From Candidatus Aenigmatarchaeota archaeon (lineage in GTDB: Archaea > Aenigmatarchaeota > Aenigmatarchaeia > QMZP01): a stretch of 64,000 bases of DNA. The DNA is taken from contig JBDRSV010000005.1 of the NCBI GenBank assembly GCA_043824495.1, forward strand, positions 64,001 through 128,000. Reading direction: 5' to 3'. The position numbers were made by a program, and so were the translations under genes. Under the pieces are notes generated by a model. The model was given only the letters and a program-made list of their open reading frames with translations, did no database searches and was not told the origin of the DNA. This document shows positions 1,065-58,587 of the stretch, one piece after another; the stretch's first letter is position 1; the number at the start of each line of letters is the position of its first letter.

Positions 1065-1172
1065 CGCGTTTCTATTCATTGTTTTCTTATTAGAAAATCT
1101 TGAACATATATCCCTTTTATTTGACAATACAAAGGGGATGGTCCATCACTGTAGACCATTAATCCCCATAAG

Positions 1173-39426: not shown

Positions 39427-40383
39427 ATGACACAAATACCCATAGAAAAAGAAGTAGAAGTAATAACAGAAGATGTCAAAAGTCCTACTATCAAAGACGA
39501 AGAAACAGACTATATGGTGCAGCTAAAAATAGCTCAAGCATATTATAAATTCAAAGGATATGAAGTCTTGTTAGGACATGATTTTGAAGAGAATTTAATT
39601 ACTTTTGTATCACCTGAAGATTCAACTGATAGAATGCTTCTTGATGAATATACAAAAATCAAGTTATGGAAAAAGAAGAAAACACCAGAGATTGTGGAGT
39701 ATTCACAGAGAATAATTGATGTTATAGGAGAAGAAAAAACAAAACAAATACTATTCATCTGTAGGTTATGCAGCTTCTTGGGAGGACCAGGATTCCCCGA
39801 AATCATTCTAATCAAAGACAATAAAATGGAACTGAGATTCATCAAAATAGATGATCTGTTAAAAGAGCAGAAATTCTTCAGTTTCTTTGTAAAGGACCTA
39901 CTTCAAGTATGTGATATCAAAGTTAGTGAAGTGATACCAAACACTCTAATAAGAGAAGAAAAGAAAGCTTCCTGTACAATAAAAGAGTTGCTAGAAGAAG
40001 GTAAATCAGGCGACAGAGCCGACATGTATCTCAAAGAATTAGACGAGCTTATAAAAAAAGAAGATAATGAAGATGAGAAAAAATACCTACAAGATCAGAG
40101 ATATAATATTCCATTTTTTATGTTTGTCAAATGGTCTAATGATGGAAAAGTTGATTCAAAAGATATAGAAGAGCATTTCAAAAAAATAAATGAAATTGCA
40201 GAAAATAAAAGAAAAGATTTCATAAGATTTCATTCAGAAATAATAAAGGACGAAGAGTATATGAATTTGGGACCGATGAGAGACAATAATACAATGAAAA
40301 AGAAAAAAGAGTATATTGAAAAGAAATTCAATCTAGGAGATACCAGAGCAAAGAATTTCTTGAAATTCATAACTTCGTTGTGA
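39427..40383 (+). CDS. Hypothetical protein
   Basis: Long host-like ORF coupled to both neighbours; GPGFPEII is weakly nuclease-like. Confidence 0.6.
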   Translation: MTQIPIEKEVEVITEDVKSPTIKDEETDYMVQLKIAQAYYKFKGYEVLLGHDFEENLITFVSPEDSTDRMLLDEYTKIKLWKKKKTPEIVEYSQRIIDVIGEEKTKQILFICRLCSFLGGPGFPEIILIKDNKMELRFIKIDDLLKEQKFFSFFVKDLLQVCDIKVSEVIPNTLIREEKKASCTIKELLEEGKSGDRADMYLKELDELIKKEDNEDEKKYLQDQRYNIPFFMFVKWSNDGKVDSKDIEEHFKKINEIAENKRKDFIRFHSEIIKDEEYMNLGPMRDNNTMKKKKEYIEKKFNLGDTRAKNFLKFITSL

Positions 40384-41096
40384 TGTATATGATACCTATT
40401 ATTACTAAAGAACAGATGACAAAAATTGATGAATTGGCTGTGAAACATTTCGGCATAGAAATAATGCAGATGATGGAAATTGCTGGAAAAAACACAGCTG
40501 AAATGGCTAGAAAGATGCTCAAGAGAGTAAAAGGAAAAGAAATTGTTTGTCTTGCGGGAAAAGGAAATAATGGTGGAGATGCTTTAGTAGCTGCTAAATA
40601 CTTAACCAATTGGGGTGCAAAAGTAACTGTGATAAATGTGAATCATCCAGATGAGATGAATCAATTAACCAAAGAACAAAATGGAATTCTAAGATCAATG
40701 CATGTCAGCTTGCTTTACACAACAAATGTTATGGCTTTTGAGAAAATATTCAAAACAACTGATCTAATCATAGACGGCTTGTTAGGTTACAGTGTGAATG
40801 GAAATCCAAGAGGATTCTACGGAAAAGTAATAGAAATGGCTAATCATGTAAACAAGAAAATTTTGTCCATAGACATTCCTTCTGGTTTAGATCCAAACAC
40901 GGGAGAAGCTTATGAACCTTGTATAAAAGCTAGCGTCACGCTATGCCTCACACTGCCTAAGAAAGGTTGTGTGGAAAACAAGAAATTTGCAGGCGATATC
41001 TACGTAGCTGACATGGGAATACCGAATGAAGTTTATGAACTCATGGGATTACATGTGGGTCCAATATTCCAAGAAAAGGATATAATTAAACTGTAG
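40380..41096 (+). CDS. nnrE: NAD(P)H-hydrate epimerase
   Basis: AGKGNNGGDALV, IIDGLLG, SIDIPSGLD, VADMGIP. Confidence 0.93.
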   Translation: MMYMIPIITKEQMTKIDELAVKHFGIEIMQMMEIAGKNTAEMARKMLKRVKGKEIVCLAGKGNNGGDALVAAKYLTNWGAKVTVINVNHPDEMNQLTKEQNGILRSMHVSLLYTTNVMAFEKIFKTTDLIIDGLLGYSVNGNPRGFYGKVIEMANHVNKKILSIDIPSGLDPNTGEAYEPCIKASVTLCLTLPKKGCVENKKFAGDIYVADMGIPNEVYELMGLHVGPIFQEKDIIKL

Positions 41097-41728
41097 AAAA
41101 ATCTGGTATTAAATCCCCTGAAGATTCGACTCCATAATTTTTTTTTAATATTTTTCTCATTTTTTTTCCGTGCTTCACTTAAGTGAGCTCTGTAAGTACT
41201 TGGATGAAGTTCCATTATTTTAGCAGCTGTGTACCCATCATGACCCTCTACGTAAGAAAGTATAACTGTCGTCCTTTGCAATGTTGTCAATTGATCTAAT
41301 GCCTGATCAAGAATACTCCCAGCTCTCGATATTGCATGAATTAATTCAGGATTGCCACTGAAATCCGCCACGTCAATTAATACTTCTTCTCCGTTACTAC
41401 ATCTTATATAAGGATCATTTCCTATTGTTCTTCTTGTTACCGAATTGTTCTTTCTTAGCTGGTCTATGGCTGGGTTAACTACTACTCTATGAAACCAGCC
41501 CGAAAAACTTCTAGAGGGATCATATCCACCAGATATAGCAGCATCATAAAGATGAGTTAAACCATTTGCAACAGCGTCTTCTATATCAAAAGATACGAGA
41601 CCAATTCTACTTCCAATACCTGCCATGTATGGTCTAACAGATCTCTCAAAATCTAACCAATCTGAGTTAATCCCTGTGCTAGCAAATGTTAAGTATAATT
41701 CTCTTTGGTGTTTAAGGTCTGTAGCCAT
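41033..41728 (-). CDS. ECF-type sigma-70 factor B; 3' end probably shifted at a homopolymer
   Basis: DIEDAVANGLTHLY, SFSGWFHRVVVNPAIDQLRK, ALDQLTTLQRTTVILSYVEG...AAKIMELHPSTYRAHLSEARKK. Confidence 0.85.
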   Translation of the reverse strand: MATDLKHQRELYLTFASTGINSDWLDFERSVRPYMAGIGSRIGLVSFDIEDAVANGLTHLYDAAISGGYDPSRSFSGWFHRVVVNPAIDQLRKNNSVTRRTIGNDPYIRCSNGEEVLIDVADFSGNPELIHAISRAGSILDQALDQLTTLQRTTVILSYVEGHDGYTAAKIMELHPSTYRAHLSEARKKNEKNIKKKLWSRIFRGFNTRFFYSLIISFSWNIGPTCNPMSS

Positions 41729-41749
41729 AGTGGTCTTTTACGTTAATAG

Positions 41750-41757
41750 TATTTAAA
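41750..41757 (-). promoter_or_regulatory. Archaeal TATA box TTTAAATA for ECF gene B
   Basis: Lies 22-29 nt upstream of ATG 41728, like other host genes such as 10447. Confidence 0.55.
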
Positions 41758-41822
41758 TGACTACTAAAAGATCACATAAACAAACAAAAATAGCATAGGT
41801 CCTTCAAGCTTATTGCCTGTGT

Positions 41823-42458
41823 TTAAATCCATGTCTTCCTCTGAACAAAATCTGCACGGGATCGCATTTCTGTTTCATATTTCTTAAGACCTCTTTTCAT
41901 TAGTTCTCTAGCTCTAAATATTCTAGCCTTTACTGTTCCAATTGGATCACCAAGTATATCTGCTATATCTTCATAAGAAAACCCTTCAACATCACGTAAT
42001 ACAGTTACTCGTTTGTGAGTGGGTTTCATACTAGCGATAGTTGTTTCTAACTCGTATCTTAATTTAGATCTTAAGAAATCTGCTCCAGGGTCATTTGAAG
42101 TATCCGGTATCTGAAAACCCACATTTCCATCTGCTGTTGGAATTGGTTTGTCTATTTGGAAAGCATGATCTTCTATTCTCTTTTTTCTTAAATAATCTAT
42201 AGCTATATTTGATGCTACTTTGTACATCCATGTACCGAAACTGGTTGTATTACCATCATCAAGCTCGGCTTTATAATCTGATTCTCTTCCAGTGACTCTC
42301 CACGCTCTCATGTATACGTCTTGAACAAGCTCTTCTACTACGCTTGGATTTCTAATAACCTTGAAAATGGAACGATAAATTTTTTGCCTGCCCTTCCTAC
42401 CAAAATCTATTAAAAGTTGTTCTTTTCCTTCAGGAGTACCGTCGTAATCTATATCCAT
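41823..42458 (-). CDS. ECF-type sigma-70 factor A (RpoE/SigW-like)
   Basis: VVEELVQDVYMRAW, SFGTWMYKVASNIAIDYLRK, LRDVEGFSYEDIADILGDPIGTVKARIFRARELM. Confidence 0.95.
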   Translation of the reverse strand: MDIDYDGTPEGKEQLLIDFGRKGRQKIYRSIFKVIRNPSVVEELVQDVYMRAWRVTGRESDYKAELDDGNTTSFGTWMYKVASNIAIDYLRKKRIEDHAFQIDKPIPTADGNVGFQIPDTSNDPGADFLRSKLRYELETTIASMKPTHKRVTVLRDVEGFSYEDIADILGDPIGTVKARIFRARELMKRGLKKYETEMRSRADFVQRKTWI

Positions 42459-42478
42459 GCAACGTACTTACTACTAAG

Positions 42479-42487
42479 AATTAAATA
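42479..42487 (-). promoter_or_regulatory. TATA-like element TATTTAATT for ECF gene A
   Basis: Lies 21-29 nt upstream of ATG 42458. Confidence 0.45.
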
Positions 42488-42492
42488 CTTCT

Positions 42493-42804
42493 CTACATAA
42501 ACAAACAAGCGTAGTCTAGGTCTTTTAGTGCGTCCATTAGATTCATTGGATCAGCTGGACCATATGCACTGCTTTCTCCGTGGAATTTGAGTGTCTTCTC
42601 CTCTTTGTTGACTGTACAGTAGCCTCCACTTACTTGGAGATCGCCTTTGCTAAGTTTAGATTTCTCAATGAATTTATCCAGAATATCATTATGATATCCG
42701 TCCTTAGAACCAAATCTTACGTATAGCTGTCCTTCTACATATACCAAAATAAATTTATATTCACCGTTTTCTTCAGGGAGAATTACTTTATCCATCTTCT
42801 TCAA
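42493..42804 (-). CDS. PHPT1/Janus/Ocnus-like phosphohistidine phosphatase homologue
   Basis: GEYKFILVYV, YVRFG...YHNDILDK, SGGY, LKFHGESSAYGPAD parallel PHPT1 GVFKYVLIRV, IVRG...YHADIYDK, GGGR, IHVYGYSMAYGPA. Confidence 0.7.
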   Translation of the reverse strand: MKKMDKVILPEENGEYKFILVYVEGQLYVRFGSKDGYHNDILDKFIEKSKLSKGDLQVSGGYCTVNKEEKTLKFHGESSAYGPADPMNLMDALKDLDYACLFM

Positions 42805-43111
42805 CTAATTCAAATCCTCTATAATCAACAGAAGCTACTATGGGATAGTCTGACATGGTGTCTATTATCTGACTACTGGTATTGTCTACGTCATCTCTGA
42901 AAGATCTACGATTGATAGTGACATTATAACTGTGTAATGAAGCTGGTGCCCGCATCAAAGTAAAGCCTACTCTTTCATTCCCGTAGTTTTCAGTAAGAGC
43001 TTTTCTCAGTGGTATTCTTGCACCAAGAGGAACTACTACAATGTCTGGATTAATAATTATCTTTAATCTGAATTTGTATAAGTTACTTTCTGGTCCACCT
43101 GTATCTCCCAT
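42788..43111 (-). CDS. Hypothetical protein
   Basis: 107-aa ORF with GGTGAT Shine-Dalgarno; overlaps the next gene. Confidence 0.6.
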   Translation of the reverse strand: MGDTGGPESNLYKFRLKIIINPDIVVVPLGARIPLRKALTENYGNERVGFTLMRAPASLHSYNVTINRRSFRDDVDNTSSQIIDTMSDYPIVASVDYRGFELVEEDG

Positions 43112-43200
43112 AATATCACCTTGTATAGTCTTGATTGAAAAATATAAATATCTCTAGTCAGTTAAAAAATGAGAAAAAGGATAAAGGGGTGAAGACCCGT

Positions 43201-44469
43201 CTAAGCCTTCACCAAATCTATGATTATTCCAGCTGCTACTGTCTTACCCATGTCTCTTATAGCAAACTTTGCTAATTGTGGGAAGTCAGCCTGCTTTTCA
43301 ACTGATACTGGTTGTGTTGGAACAACTCTGATAACAGCTGCGTCACCAGATCTCAATGTGTCTGGATTCTCTGCGATTGTTTCTCCAGTTTTAGGGTCTA
43401 TTTTCTTTATAATTTCTACGATTTTACATGCAACATGTGCTGTATGCATGTGGAATACAGGTGTGTATCCTTTTGTGACCACAGTTGGGTGCTCCAAGAC
43501 AATTATTTGTCCTGTGAATTCTTTTGCGATTGTTGGAGGGTTTGTTGTATGTCCTACTACGTCACCCTTCTTGATGTCTTTCTTTCCTGCACCTCTGACA
43601 TTGAATCCGATGTTATCACCAGGTCCTGCTTTAGCAAGCTGCTTGTGATGCATTTCAATTGATTTAATTTCAGCTAGCGTTCCGCTTGGGTTAAATATAA
43701 CCTTATCTCCTGGTTTCATCACTCCTGTCTCAATTCTACCTACTGGAACTGCACCAACACCTGTGATGTTGTACACATCCTGAATAGGCATTCTTAGTGG
43801 CTTATCTACTGGTTTTTCTGGAGCCACGATTGTTGCGTCAAGAGTTGCTACTAAAGTATCACCTTTGTACCAAGCCATCTTGTCAGATTTTTTGACTACG
43901 TTGTCTCCTATCCATGCTGAAACTGGCACGAAAGGAATCTTGCTTACGTCATAACCGACACTTTGTAGAAGCTTTGTTACTTCTTCTTTTACTTTGTTGA
44001 ATTTAGCTTCTTCGTATCCTATAGCATCCATCTTGTTAATAGCAACTACGATTTGCTTAATTCCAAGAACCTTTGATAGGTATACGTGTTCTTTTGTTTG
44101 CTCTTGAATGCTGTCTTTTACAGATACAATCAAGATAGCCGCATCTGCTTGTGATGCGCCAGTAATCATATTCTTAATAAAGTCCTTGTGACCAGGCACA
44201 TCGATAATTGTATAATAATTCTTGTTTGTTTCGAATCCCTTATACATAAGATCTATTGTAAGACCTCTTTCTCTTTCTTCCTTTAGATTATCCATCACGA
44301 AAGCGAATTCGAATGTCTCTTTTTTCAATTCTTTTGCCTTTTCTTTTAATTTTCTTAATTCTTGTTCTGTGAGTACTCCAGAATCAAAGAACAATCTACC
44401 AATAAGTGTAGATTTTCCGTGGTCTACGTGACCTGAAGTTATCAAGTTTATATGTGGTTTTTCAGCCAT
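43201..44469 (-). CDS. tuf: Archaeal translation elongation factor EF-1alpha
   Basis: [65 protein letters not shown]. Confidence 0.99.
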
Positions 44470-44618
44470 ATCCTAATCCTCCGAGTTTTATCATCTTAAA
44501 TGAGCATGAGCTCAAGATGTTTATCTATGTAATTATTGATTTAAATACTTTACACTGTGTATTATGCTATATAACCAGTCTTTATAAAGGTTATGTATGT
44601 CTCTATCAATCGGTTTTA

Positions 44619-45602
44619 TCATTTATCAAGCTCTTTTTTGAACTGTTCTACAATTTCAACTTCTGTTGGGTCTATACCGTATTCAAGAGCTAAATAATAA
44701 GAAACCCATGCTCCTAAGTTTAATCCCCATAGGAGTCTTTCGAGTAAATTATCACCTTCCAATTTGATATCAGTCACTCCAACGTTCTTTGATTCAACCA
44801 CTTTCTTGAAGATGTCAAACCTCTTTTTGTTTCTTGGGTGATCTTCAGAATCTCTGATAAGAATAACATGATAATTTCCAATTAAGTTTACGTAGCTGTT
44901 TATCTCATTATGATTTGATTCAGGGAATACATTATAGAAAGCTGATGTTTTAGAATTCTCGTTTATATCTATTTTCCATTTCTCAGCTACGCAGAATATT
45001 TCTTCAGATGAGTAAATGAGAGGTGTTTTATCTTTTAGTTCATTTGATATTTCTTTAGCTCTCTCTCTTATTTTTTTATTTTTTAGTTTCTCTGCTACTT
45101 TCTTGAGATTAGAATCCTGATTTTCAATCATATTTAGTTTACTTATGATTTTGAGTAATGGGACAAACAAATATGGTGTGGACATTCTTGGTGGTAATCC
45201 AGAAGGTACTTTGATGTGAAATGTGTTATTCTCTTTTGCTAATTCCTCTAACTTTCCACCACATGAGATAGTGACTATTTTTGCGTGTCTCTTAAGACCC
45301 TCTTTATAAGAATCAATGGCTTCTTCAGTATTTCCTGAATAAGATATTGAGAATAATAAAGTGCTTTCGTTTACTATTCTAGGTAGAGTGTACTTCTTAT
45401 TTACAAATACTTGGGTTTCTGAATCTCCCATAAAAGATTTAAGTAAATCTCCTGGGAAAGCACTACCACCCATACCAGAAATAACTACATTGTTTACATT
45501 TCCTATAATCTCAATCTCGTTTCCAAGATTCATAGCGTCTTTTATCATATCTGGAACTCTATCTAAAAGTAGTCCCATATTTGATTTATCTACTTCATTC
45601 AT
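44619..45602 (-). CDS. Bifunctional phosphoglucose/phosphomannose isomerase (SIS type)
   Basis: GMGGSAFPGD, SYSGNTEE, PPRMS, ENSK, PESNHNEI. Confidence 0.93.
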   Translation of the reverse strand: MNEVDKSNMGLLLDRVPDMIKDAMNLGNEIEIIGNVNNVVISGMGGSAFPGDLLKSFMGDSETQVFVNKKYTLPRIVNESTLLFSISYSGNTEEAIDSYKEGLKRHAKIVTISCGGKLEELAKENNTFHIKVPSGLPPRMSTPYLFVPLLKIISKLNMIENQDSNLKKVAEKLKNKKIRERAKEISNELKDKTPLIYSSEEIFCVAEKWKIDINENSKTSAFYNVFPESNHNEINSYVNLIGNYHVILIRDSEDHPRNKKRFDIFKKVVESKNVGVTDIKLEGDNLLERLLWGLNLGAWVSYYLALEYGIDPTEVEIVEQFKKELDK

Positions 45603-47281: not shown

Positions 47282-47365
47282 TGCGGGAGGCAGGATTCGA
47301 ACCTGCGAAGGCACTAAGCCACACGGTCCTTAGCCGTGCTCCTTTGACCGCTCGGAAACTCCCGC
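47282..47365 (-). tRNA. tRNA-Leu, anticodon AAG
   Basis: GCGGGAG/CTCCCGC acceptor, A73, long variable arm, GCAGG-TTCGAAT-CCTGC T arm; anticodon arm CACGG-CTAAGGA-CCGTG. Confidence 0.93.
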
Positions 47366-48195: not shown

Positions 48196-48217
48196 CGAAG
48201 TTGTGAAAAGATCTTCG

Positions 48218-48293
48218 TAAGCGGATAGCATACGACGGCAGTGCACGGGCTCGATAACCCGAATGGTCGGAGGTTCAAGTCCTCCTCGCTTAC
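48218..48293 (+). tRNA. Initiator-tRNA-like gene or pseudo-tRNA with an 8-nt anticodon loop
   Basis: TAAGCGG/TCGCTTA acceptor, GCAT/GTGC D stem, CGGG-CTCGATAA-CCCG, GGAGG-TTCAAGT-CCTCC. Confidence 0.65.
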
Positions 48294-48300
48294 TGGAGAG

Positions 48301-49407: not shown

Positions 49408-49508
49408 CAGAGGCTAAGTTTCAGGCTTCTGTTTATATTGTCTAATTAAAGGGATATAGAAGAGCAAGAAAAAAATCTGAAGAATCATAAAAACAAAAAA
49501 GAAGGGAT

Positions 49509-58520: not shown

Positions 58521-58587
58521 ATAATGTCTAATTAAAGGGATATAAAGGACCAGAAAACCATTTAAGTTTTCTCTACATATATGTACT

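Follow-up and report, generated by a model that had tools for sequence, protein, structure and literature searches.

Sigma factors are a hallmark of bacterial transcription initiation; archaea use the TATA-binding protein (TBP) and the transcription factors TFB and TFE. We analysed a 64-kb stretch of DNA (the window, to whose full length all coordinates refer) from a groundwater archaeon of the Aenigmatarchaeota (DPANN), in which two adjacent genes, labelled sigA and sigB for this analysis, encode extracytoplasmic function (ECF)-type proteins of the sigma-70 family. The closest described case is that of Castelle et al. (2021, Front Microbiol 12:660052, PMC8204110), who described sigma-70 genes from DPANN archaea, above all Woesearchaeota, as family fam00359; mis-binning was excluded, anti-sigma factors were missing and the mechanism was given as unknown (PMC8204110). 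The genes studied here resemble those in lying on a contig with archaeal markers, in having no anti-sigma gene and in occurring beside TBP/TFB-type machinery, whereas the emphasis there was on Woesearchaeota and the host here belongs to the Aenigmatarchaeota. This likeness to fam00359 rests on shared Pfam domains and on the description in that paper (PMC8204110). What is added here is a tandem pair with a duplication relic, a TATA-type promoter in place of a bacterial ECF promoter, a Zixibacteria-like sister clade, and, elsewhere in the genome, a second sigma import that is apparently recent. That DPANN archaea can carry sigma-70 genes has been known since 2021, as has the functional question raised by intact, long-resident sigma genes in the company of an archaeal polymerase only; the local detail is new, and no new principle is involved.

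The two genes are located as follows.

41823..42458, minus strand: sigA, an ECF-type sigma-70 family gene of 211 amino acids (Pfam and NCBIfam scores above cut-offs)
41033..41728, minus strand: sigB, a divergent orphan ECF-type sigma gene of 231 amino acids (Pfam, TIGR02937)

Both proteins scored above the cut-offs of Sigma70_r2 (24 bits), Sigma70_r4_2 (25.7 bits) and the whole-protein model TIGR02937 (sigma70-ECF, 42.9 bits): sigA with 37.5, 45.2 and 70.9 bits, and sigB with 26.4 (a narrow pass), 38.9 and 52.3 bits, respectively. The Sigma70_r3 and r1 profiles gave no match in either protein. In sigA, sigma2 spans residues ~38-96, the linker 97-134 and sigma4 135-192, followed by a 15-residue C-terminal extension (197-211). 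For sigB, a single-sequence AlphaFold2 (AF2) model was unusable (pLDDT 38.6), while a model built with an alignment of 80 ECF sigmas reached pLDDT 82.3, with confident sigma2 (1-98) and sigma4 (127-200) domains and a low-confidence tail (205-231). The top Foldseek matches of this second model were ECF sigmas; because the model leans on an ECF alignment, it is only compatible with an ECF fold and is not independent proof of one. With sigma2, sigma4, a short linker and a match to the whole-protein ECF model in each case, sigA and sigB are true members of the ECF-type (group 4) sigma-70 family, bacterial in origin and resident in an archaeal chromosome. A preliminary description, prepared from the letters of the window, had reported two neighbouring, co-oriented open reading frames (ORFs) with sigma region 2 and region 4 motifs here; its coordinates were exact, the motifs that it quoted were present, and the profile search that it proposed with Sigma70_r2 and Sigma70_r4_2 gave scores above the curated cut-offs for both proteins.

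The two genes are 94 nt apart. At this base composition, open frames of 211 and 231 codons have chance probabilities of ~6e-7 and ~2e-7. Neither protein has a hydrophobic N-terminus or a segment of transmembrane length (maximum KD19 0.59 for sigA and 0.85 for sigB), in line with the earlier statement that signal peptides are lacking. Within the 3' part of sigB lies an A-rich run (41137-41168) with two homopolymer stretches of 8-9 A each; it is a candidate natural frameshift hotspot, and it draws unrelated 31-mers from RNA libraries. No RNA run was listed as containing the stretch; two metatranscriptome runs from the same study gave only 31-mers on this low-complexity run and scraps of the conserved EF-1alpha gene, which speaks neither for nor against expression.

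Among proteins of solved structure, sigA matched sigmaE, AlgU, SigW and SigH at E ~1e-15 (PDB sequences). The pair shares with the RpoE, AlgU and SigW ECF sigmas (PDB 1OR7, 6IN7, 5WUQ, 6JBQ) the sigma2-linker-sigma4 arrangement and the region 2 and region 4 motifs, and the sigma4 recognition helix of sigA is almost identical to that of sigmaE. In contrast to those systems, neither a bacterial core RNA polymerase (RNAP) nor an anti-sigma nor an AAC/CGT-type autoregulated promoter was found here; sigA carries sigma2 insertions and is extended at the C-terminus, and sigB has changed conserved core-facing residues. A precedent for an ECF fold that has given up sigma function exists in PhyR-type sigma-like domains, where it serves to bind proteins. 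Matches to PF22233 were weak and below threshold (17 bits for sigA and 14 bits for sigB, against a cut-off of 27), and, unlike in PhyR-type proteins, there is no receiver domain here and no NepR-like partner was found.

We then considered the chromosomal setting, for which three flanking genes are relevant.

43201..44469, minus strand: archaeal EF-1alpha, context and lineage marker (Pfam)
42493..42804, minus strand: PHPT1/Janus-Ocnus-like gene of 103 amino acids, directly upstream of sigA (PF05005, 40.8 bits)
40380..41096, plus strand: YjeF_N / NAD(P)H-hydrate epimerase gene (nnrE), convergent with sigB (PF03853, 156 bits)

The distance from the EF-1alpha stop to the sigA start is 743 nt, close to the ~750 bp given in the preliminary description. 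The overlap with the 3' end of nnrE mentioned there amounts to 64 nt, sigB being the overlapping gene, and corresponds to the last 21 codons of sigB. The genome (1.01 Mb) is 80% complete with an estimated contamination of 0.2%. The nearest named relatives of its EF-1alpha are metagenome-assembled genomes of Candidatus Aenigmatarchaeota (up to 85% identity, record JBDRNB010000058), and its sole Rpb1-type gene, an archaeal Rpo1N, lies on the same 153-kb contig as the sigma pair. The genome has two TBP genes. A search for TFIIB/TFB (PF00382) gave no match in the assembly, which is 80% complete; since TFB is present in 39 of the 41 genomes searched (this genome counted among the 41), including the sister species, its absence is probably due to an assembly gap.

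The genes had been described as being as AT-rich as their neighbours, and their composition agreed with this. The GC content, GC content at third codon positions (GC3) and codon adaptation were 0.362, 0.231 and 0.712 for sigA and 0.365, 0.250 and 0.710 for sigB, compared with gene means of 0.362 ± 0.043, 0.289 ± 0.084 and 0.717 for the genome. Chimerism, raised as a concern in the preliminary description, was checked in the Logan assembly, where one 38,369-nt contig (depth 39.3) covers 39500-45500 with 0 differences and crosses the locus at uniform depth. The sole public run containing this stretch is a groundwater metagenome, probably the source sample, and Logan here represents a second assembler, not a second sample. 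EF-1alpha and Rpo1N on the sigma contig, host-like composition and a contig from a second assembler across the locus place the pair with the DPANN sigma genes, as native to the archaeal chromosome.

The only other species of the genus carries EF-1alpha, a HAD gene, an Ocnus-like gene (36% identical to the one here) and an ECF sigma gene cut by the contig end. Both species of the genus thus have the Ocnus-like gene next to an ECF sigma gene, a linkage that was not found beyond the genus. Among 80 EF-1alpha loci, a sigma gene downstream was seen at one, the same-genus locus. Because the other relatives carry different genes downstream of EF-1alpha, a synteny breakpoint, the sigma pair occupies a fast-changing, genus-specific slot.

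To place the pair, we searched sigA against 5.8 billion clustered proteins and sigB against 1.84 billion representatives, and both against 90 genomes of the order. The best non-self matches of sigA (BLASTP) were bacterial ECF sigmas, the named ones from Zixibacteria or Acidobacteriota, at 38-49% identity. Near-identity to a bacterial gene, which the preliminary description had named as grounds for abandoning an archaeal home, was not seen, as bacterial sequences were at most 49% identical to sigA. The closest group is an ECF clade of Zixibacteria and Acidobacteriota (e.g. GCA_040752075.1, GCA_040752595.1), to which sigA is 46-49% identical and with which it has linker and sigma4 signatures in common. 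In the tree, sigA was sister to this clade (SH-aLRT 94), outside it on a long branch (1.5 substitutions per site, compared with 0.01-0.5 for bacterial tips). Judged by these sequences, sigA shares ancestry with the ECF clade of Zixibacteria/Acidobacteriota.

Divergence from the clade is considerable. Of the 98 alignment columns with at least 90% conservation among 41 bacterial clade members, sigA keeps 54 and replaces 44; the kept columns number 1/11 in the N-terminal segment, 21/35 in sigma2, 8/14 in the linker and 24/38 in sigma4. Insertions of 3 and 6 residues (9 in total) lie in the sigma2 loop ahead of the FGTW motif, and another of 2 residues is present. The sigma4 recognition helix hardly differs from those of the bacterial clade and of Escherichia coli sigmaE, and the region 2.2 / 2.4 consensus (the Gln, W-x-x-x-x-x-x-N and D-x-x-R motifs) is retained. 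The sigB protein is more divergent: its best non-self match had 29% identity (E 3e-9), its identity to sigA is 26%, and several residues that are 76-91% conserved across ECFs have been lost, among them the region-2.2 Gln, which we take to face the beta-prime clamp helices. The word "complete", used of both proteins in the preliminary description, therefore needs qualifying. The ORFs are intact and the domains score above cut-off, but sigB lacks these conserved residues and sigA has replaced nearly half of the positions that characterise its bacterial sister clade.

Orthologs were found neither for sigA, in the 90 genomes of the order or the 5.8 billion clustered proteins, nor for sigB, in the same 90 genomes or the 1.84 billion representatives. 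A phylogeny had been proposed as a test for an archaeal clade: sigA stands beside a bacterial clade and not an archaeal one, sigB could not be placed, and the ECF-type sigmas from the remaining families of the order cluster according to archaeal family. In the tree sigB paired with another long branch, a placement that was unreliable and was not used.

The bacterial relatives of sigA come with features that are missing from the archaeal locus. Of seven bacterial clade members looked up, five have a gene for a DUF4097 protein (305-362 amino acids) downstream of sigma, and a classical ECF promoter, GAAAC-N16/17-CGTA, precedes the bacterial sigma gene in all five loci read. This promoter was not found upstream of sigA or sigB, and DUF4097 and zf-HC2 gave no match in the 80%-complete genome. 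The earlier statement that no anti-sigma gene is adjacent was upheld: the neighbours are the PHPT1-like gene, a 107-aa ORF and nnrE, none of them a recognised anti-sigma. Accordingly, the two features of an ECF system that fail here are the cognate anti-sigma and the autoregulated promoter with its AAC-type -35 and CGT-type -10 elements, and sigA arrived without the downstream DUF4097 partner gene of its clade. Across the genome, GAAAC-N16/17-CGTA occurs at 8 sites, with roughly 2-5 expected, which is not clearly enriched and makes the motif uninformative as a regulon marker.

Archaeal promoter signals were found instead. Across 561 genes of the genome whose upstream DNA is free, the position of TATA-like hexamers relative to the ATG shows a peak between -32 and -27, which is the signature of leaderless archaeal promoters. 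Both sigma genes have such a hexamer and a copy of a repeated box, and a gene relic lies ahead of sigB.

42481..42486, minus strand: TATA-like hexamer, starting 28 nt before the sigA ATG (sequence and genome-wide peak)
41753..41758, minus strand: TATA-like hexamer, starting 30 nt before the sigB ATG (sequence and genome-wide peak)
42495..42522, minus strand: box copy A, 28 nt, just upstream of the sigA TATA box (repeat family D15)
41774..41801, minus strand: box copy B, the same 28-nt element, between sigA and sigB and ahead of the sigB TATA box (repeat family D15)
41772..41822, minus strand: relic of the 3' end of the PHPT1/Janus-like gene, 16 codons and a stop (translations, alignment of upstream regions)

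The 28-nt box is GACCTAnnCTAnnnTTGTTTGTTTATGT; its pattern occurs at these two sites only in the 1.01-Mb genome (control 0). Copy A consists of the last 8 codons, part of a ninth and two stop-codon bases of the PHPT1/Janus-like gene. The upstream regions of sigA and sigB are homologous by alignment, and the relic continues the sigA reading frame immediately after the TAA of that gene. Of the last 12 residues of the relic, 9 match the C-terminus of the PHPT1-like protein, with the stop at the same place (KDLDYACLFM-stop in the gene and KDLCYFCLFM-stop in the relic). This relic ahead of sigB shows that a piece comprising the last codons of the PHPT1-like gene and the promoter was duplicated in tandem, and the sigB gene itself probably derives from the same local duplication. 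The relic is identical at 25 of 31 nt, whereas the sigA and sigB proteins are only 26% identical. This contrast fits constraint on the box, for example as an operator; it also fits homogenisation of the two promoters by gene conversion, or duplication of the promoter module alone with another origin for sigB. The box was also compared with a -35 element, but the match (4-5 of 7 positions) was noticed post hoc and was not used.

The genome carries a third sigma gene outside the window.

Contig C5:21477-22307 of the same genome (locus L005:1366-2196): FliA/WhiG-type sigma, 276 amino acids, regions 2, 3 and 4

Its GC content is 0.496, compared with a genome mean of 0.36, and it is 68-71% identical to FliA/WhiG sigmas of Zixibacteria. 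A box of about 20 nt (TGTCTAATTAAAGGGATATA-like), a marker of the borders of GC-rich blocks here, lies ~320 nt downstream (C5:22630-22649). The FliA-type gene looks like a recent single-gene import from Zixibacteria. Two sigma imports of different age, a fresh one and an old one adapted in composition, thus share the genome, and both have Zixibacteria-like relatives.

The account that we lean towards, although only somewhat more than against it, is that sigA and sigB are retained, non-classical regulators that bind DNA at archaeal promoters, with the 28-nt box as a candidate target. On this account, the archaeal machinery would express both genes from their TATA-type promoters, and selection would keep them intact although they would no longer act as classical sigma factors. 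Their likeliest role would be that of sequence-specific DNA-binding regulators acting through the sigma4 helix-turn-helix, and through the shared box they may control their own promoters. Maintenance by selection is suggested because the genes are fully adapted in composition and two such open frames are improbable by chance. A departure from classical sigma function is suggested because many clade-invariant positions have changed and the genome has no bacterial polymerase. DNA binding is favoured because the DNA-reading helix of sigma4 is the best-preserved functional element of sigA.

Several observations weigh against this account. Selection on sigA and sigB is not measurable by the ratio of nonsynonymous to synonymous substitution rates (dN/dS) because no orthologs were found. 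The sigma of the sister species at the same locus is only ~29% identical to sigA. Sigma70_r2 is patchy in the phylum: of 274 genomes with a completeness of at least 80%, 37 have it, and most of these belong to this order. Duplication of the coding part is not proven because sigB is no closer to sigA (26%) than to unrelated ECFs (29%). Finally, the shared box may be conserved only as a duplication relic or as a product of gene conversion.

The strongest competitor is that the two genes are dispensable bacterial imports, still intact, that have no role in the archaeon and are drifting toward loss. The lack of orthologs, which makes both genes species-specific, would be expected of such imports, as would the replacement in sigA of 44 of 98 clade-invariant residues, 10 of the 11 in the N-terminal segment among them, the loss of conserved residues in sigB, and the low-confidence sigB tail that runs into nnrE. 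The patchy occurrence of sigma genes and the synteny breakpoint after EF-1alpha agree with it as well, and the genome is still taking in bacterial genes, the FliA-type sigma among them. However, the host-like composition implies long residence, yet both frames have stayed open; each gene has a TATA-like box at the distance typical of the genome, and the sigA recognition helix is nearly unchanged. A further point against drift, and in favour of retention, comes from the related genera, where orthologous ECF sigmas compared in congeneric pairs of the order gave dN/dS values of 0.19-0.31, at near-saturated dS; on these comparisons, vertical descent under purifying selection is indicated for them. 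We consider drift unlikely overall, while granting it appreciable weight.

An improbable explanation is that the archaeal RNAP uses the proteins as genuine factors of initiation or specificity, with sigma2 bound to the clamp coiled-coil of Rpo1N and transcription redirected to particular promoters. That coiled-coil corresponds in structure to the clamp helices of the bacterial beta-prime subunit. The archaeal polymerase is the only possible partner in the genome, sigA keeps the region 2.2 and 2.4 consensus and 8 of the 14 conserved linker positions, and sigma genes recur in the order, with Sigma70_r2 present in 30 of 61 genomes sampled. Nevertheless, a normal initiation system is in place, as TBP is present and TFB is so widespread among the relatives; the locus lacks the ancestral ECF promoter motif, whose count in the genome shows no clear enrichment; many clade-invariant residues of sigA have changed; and sigB lacks the region-2.2 Gln. 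We know of no precedent for a sigma factor working with an archaeal RNAP. A complex prediction of sigA 1-100 with the first 420 residues of Rpo1N (both as alignments) scored 0.00 and weighs neither way. The specific version in which sigA, alone or with sigB, would be a promoter-specificity factor that docks on the Rpo1N clamp and reads DNA via sigma4 seems to us slightly less probable again; if true, it would represent a hybrid bacterial/archaeal initiation mechanism.

The proteins had also been proposed to be effectors aimed at the RNAP of a bacterial partner. In this case they might enter, for example, a Zixibacterium and switch on its ECF regulon, with no anti-sigma to restrain them. Both sigA and the FliA-type sigma have a Zixibacteria-like donor lineage, and the sigA recognition helix matches that of the clade. 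Against this stand the missing signal peptide or hydrophobic segment, the 44 changed clade-invariant positions, including those of the N-terminal segment, and the degenerate region 2.2 of sigB; moreover, the known hosts of cultured DPANN are archaea. We regard this possibility as very improbable. Least credible of all is an artefact of assembly or binning that misjoined bacterial DNA to an archaeal contig: the proteins are bacterial in type and the only run with the stretch is probably the source sample, which leaves no independent sample, but the second assembler's 38-kb contig, the host composition and codon usage, the archaeal-type promoters, the equivalent placement of an ECF sigma behind EF-1alpha and the Ocnus-like gene in the sister species, the distance of the closest bacterial sequence and the low estimated contamination all argue against it.

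The locus offers several handles on the function of the pair: a nameable bacterial sister clade with a readable promoter motif; a 28-nt box common to both promoters as a candidate operator; the loss of the bacterial promoter and anti-sigma partner with an archaeal TATA promoter present; and an old ECF pair beside a fresh FliA-type import. If the proteins bind DNA or the archaeal RNAP, they would provide a clean case of a basal bacterial factor reused in another domain. If they bind neither, they would be a record of how long useless imports persist in reduced genomes.

Elsewhere in the order, clusters of two or three sigma-region-2 genes were seen in other genomes (G011:C20:14768-20369, G015:C76:450-2243, G039:C1:122676-122873). 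Some sigma-region-2 matches in relatives fall within open frames of 300-840 amino acids, which suggests fused sigma-like proteins.

Two further features lie between EF-1alpha and the sigma pair.

42788..43111, minus strand: 107-aa ORF between EF-1alpha and the PHPT1-like gene (no Pfam match)
43188..43213, minus strand: terminator-like hairpin that includes the EF-1alpha stop codon (43201-43203), with a T-rich tract behind it

In structural comparison, the Atlas model of the 107-aa ORF came closest to the archaeal EF1_GNE family (TM 0.65/0.75). As a lead only, this ORF may be a divergent aEF-1beta / nucleotide-exchange factor. The PHPT1/Janus-Ocnus family is rare in the order, with robust matches in 3 of 91 genomes, and the protein encoded here ends in Cys-Leu-Phe-Met, a CaaX-like tail that the sister species lacks.

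The TGTCTAATTAAAGGGATATA-like box has 19 copies in the genome at up to 3 mismatches, with 0.01 expected by chance in the window, where three copies lie at the edges of GC-rich blocks.

1107-1127, minus strand: TGTCTAATTAAAGGGATATA-like box
49438-49458, plus strand: TGTCTAATTAAAGGGATATA-like box
58524-58544, plus strand: TGTCTAATTAAAGGGATATA-like box

We also considered whether the sigma pair might belong to such a GC-rich cassette; this was rejected, as no boundary box lies in or beside the EF-1alpha-nnrE interval. Finally, ARAGORN called a tRNA-like gene with a four-base anticodon (cgat) at 48217-48294 (plus strand), next to tRNA-Pro(CGG) in a GC-rich patch, and further called a tRNA-Leu with the anticodon AAG at 47282-47365 (minus strand).

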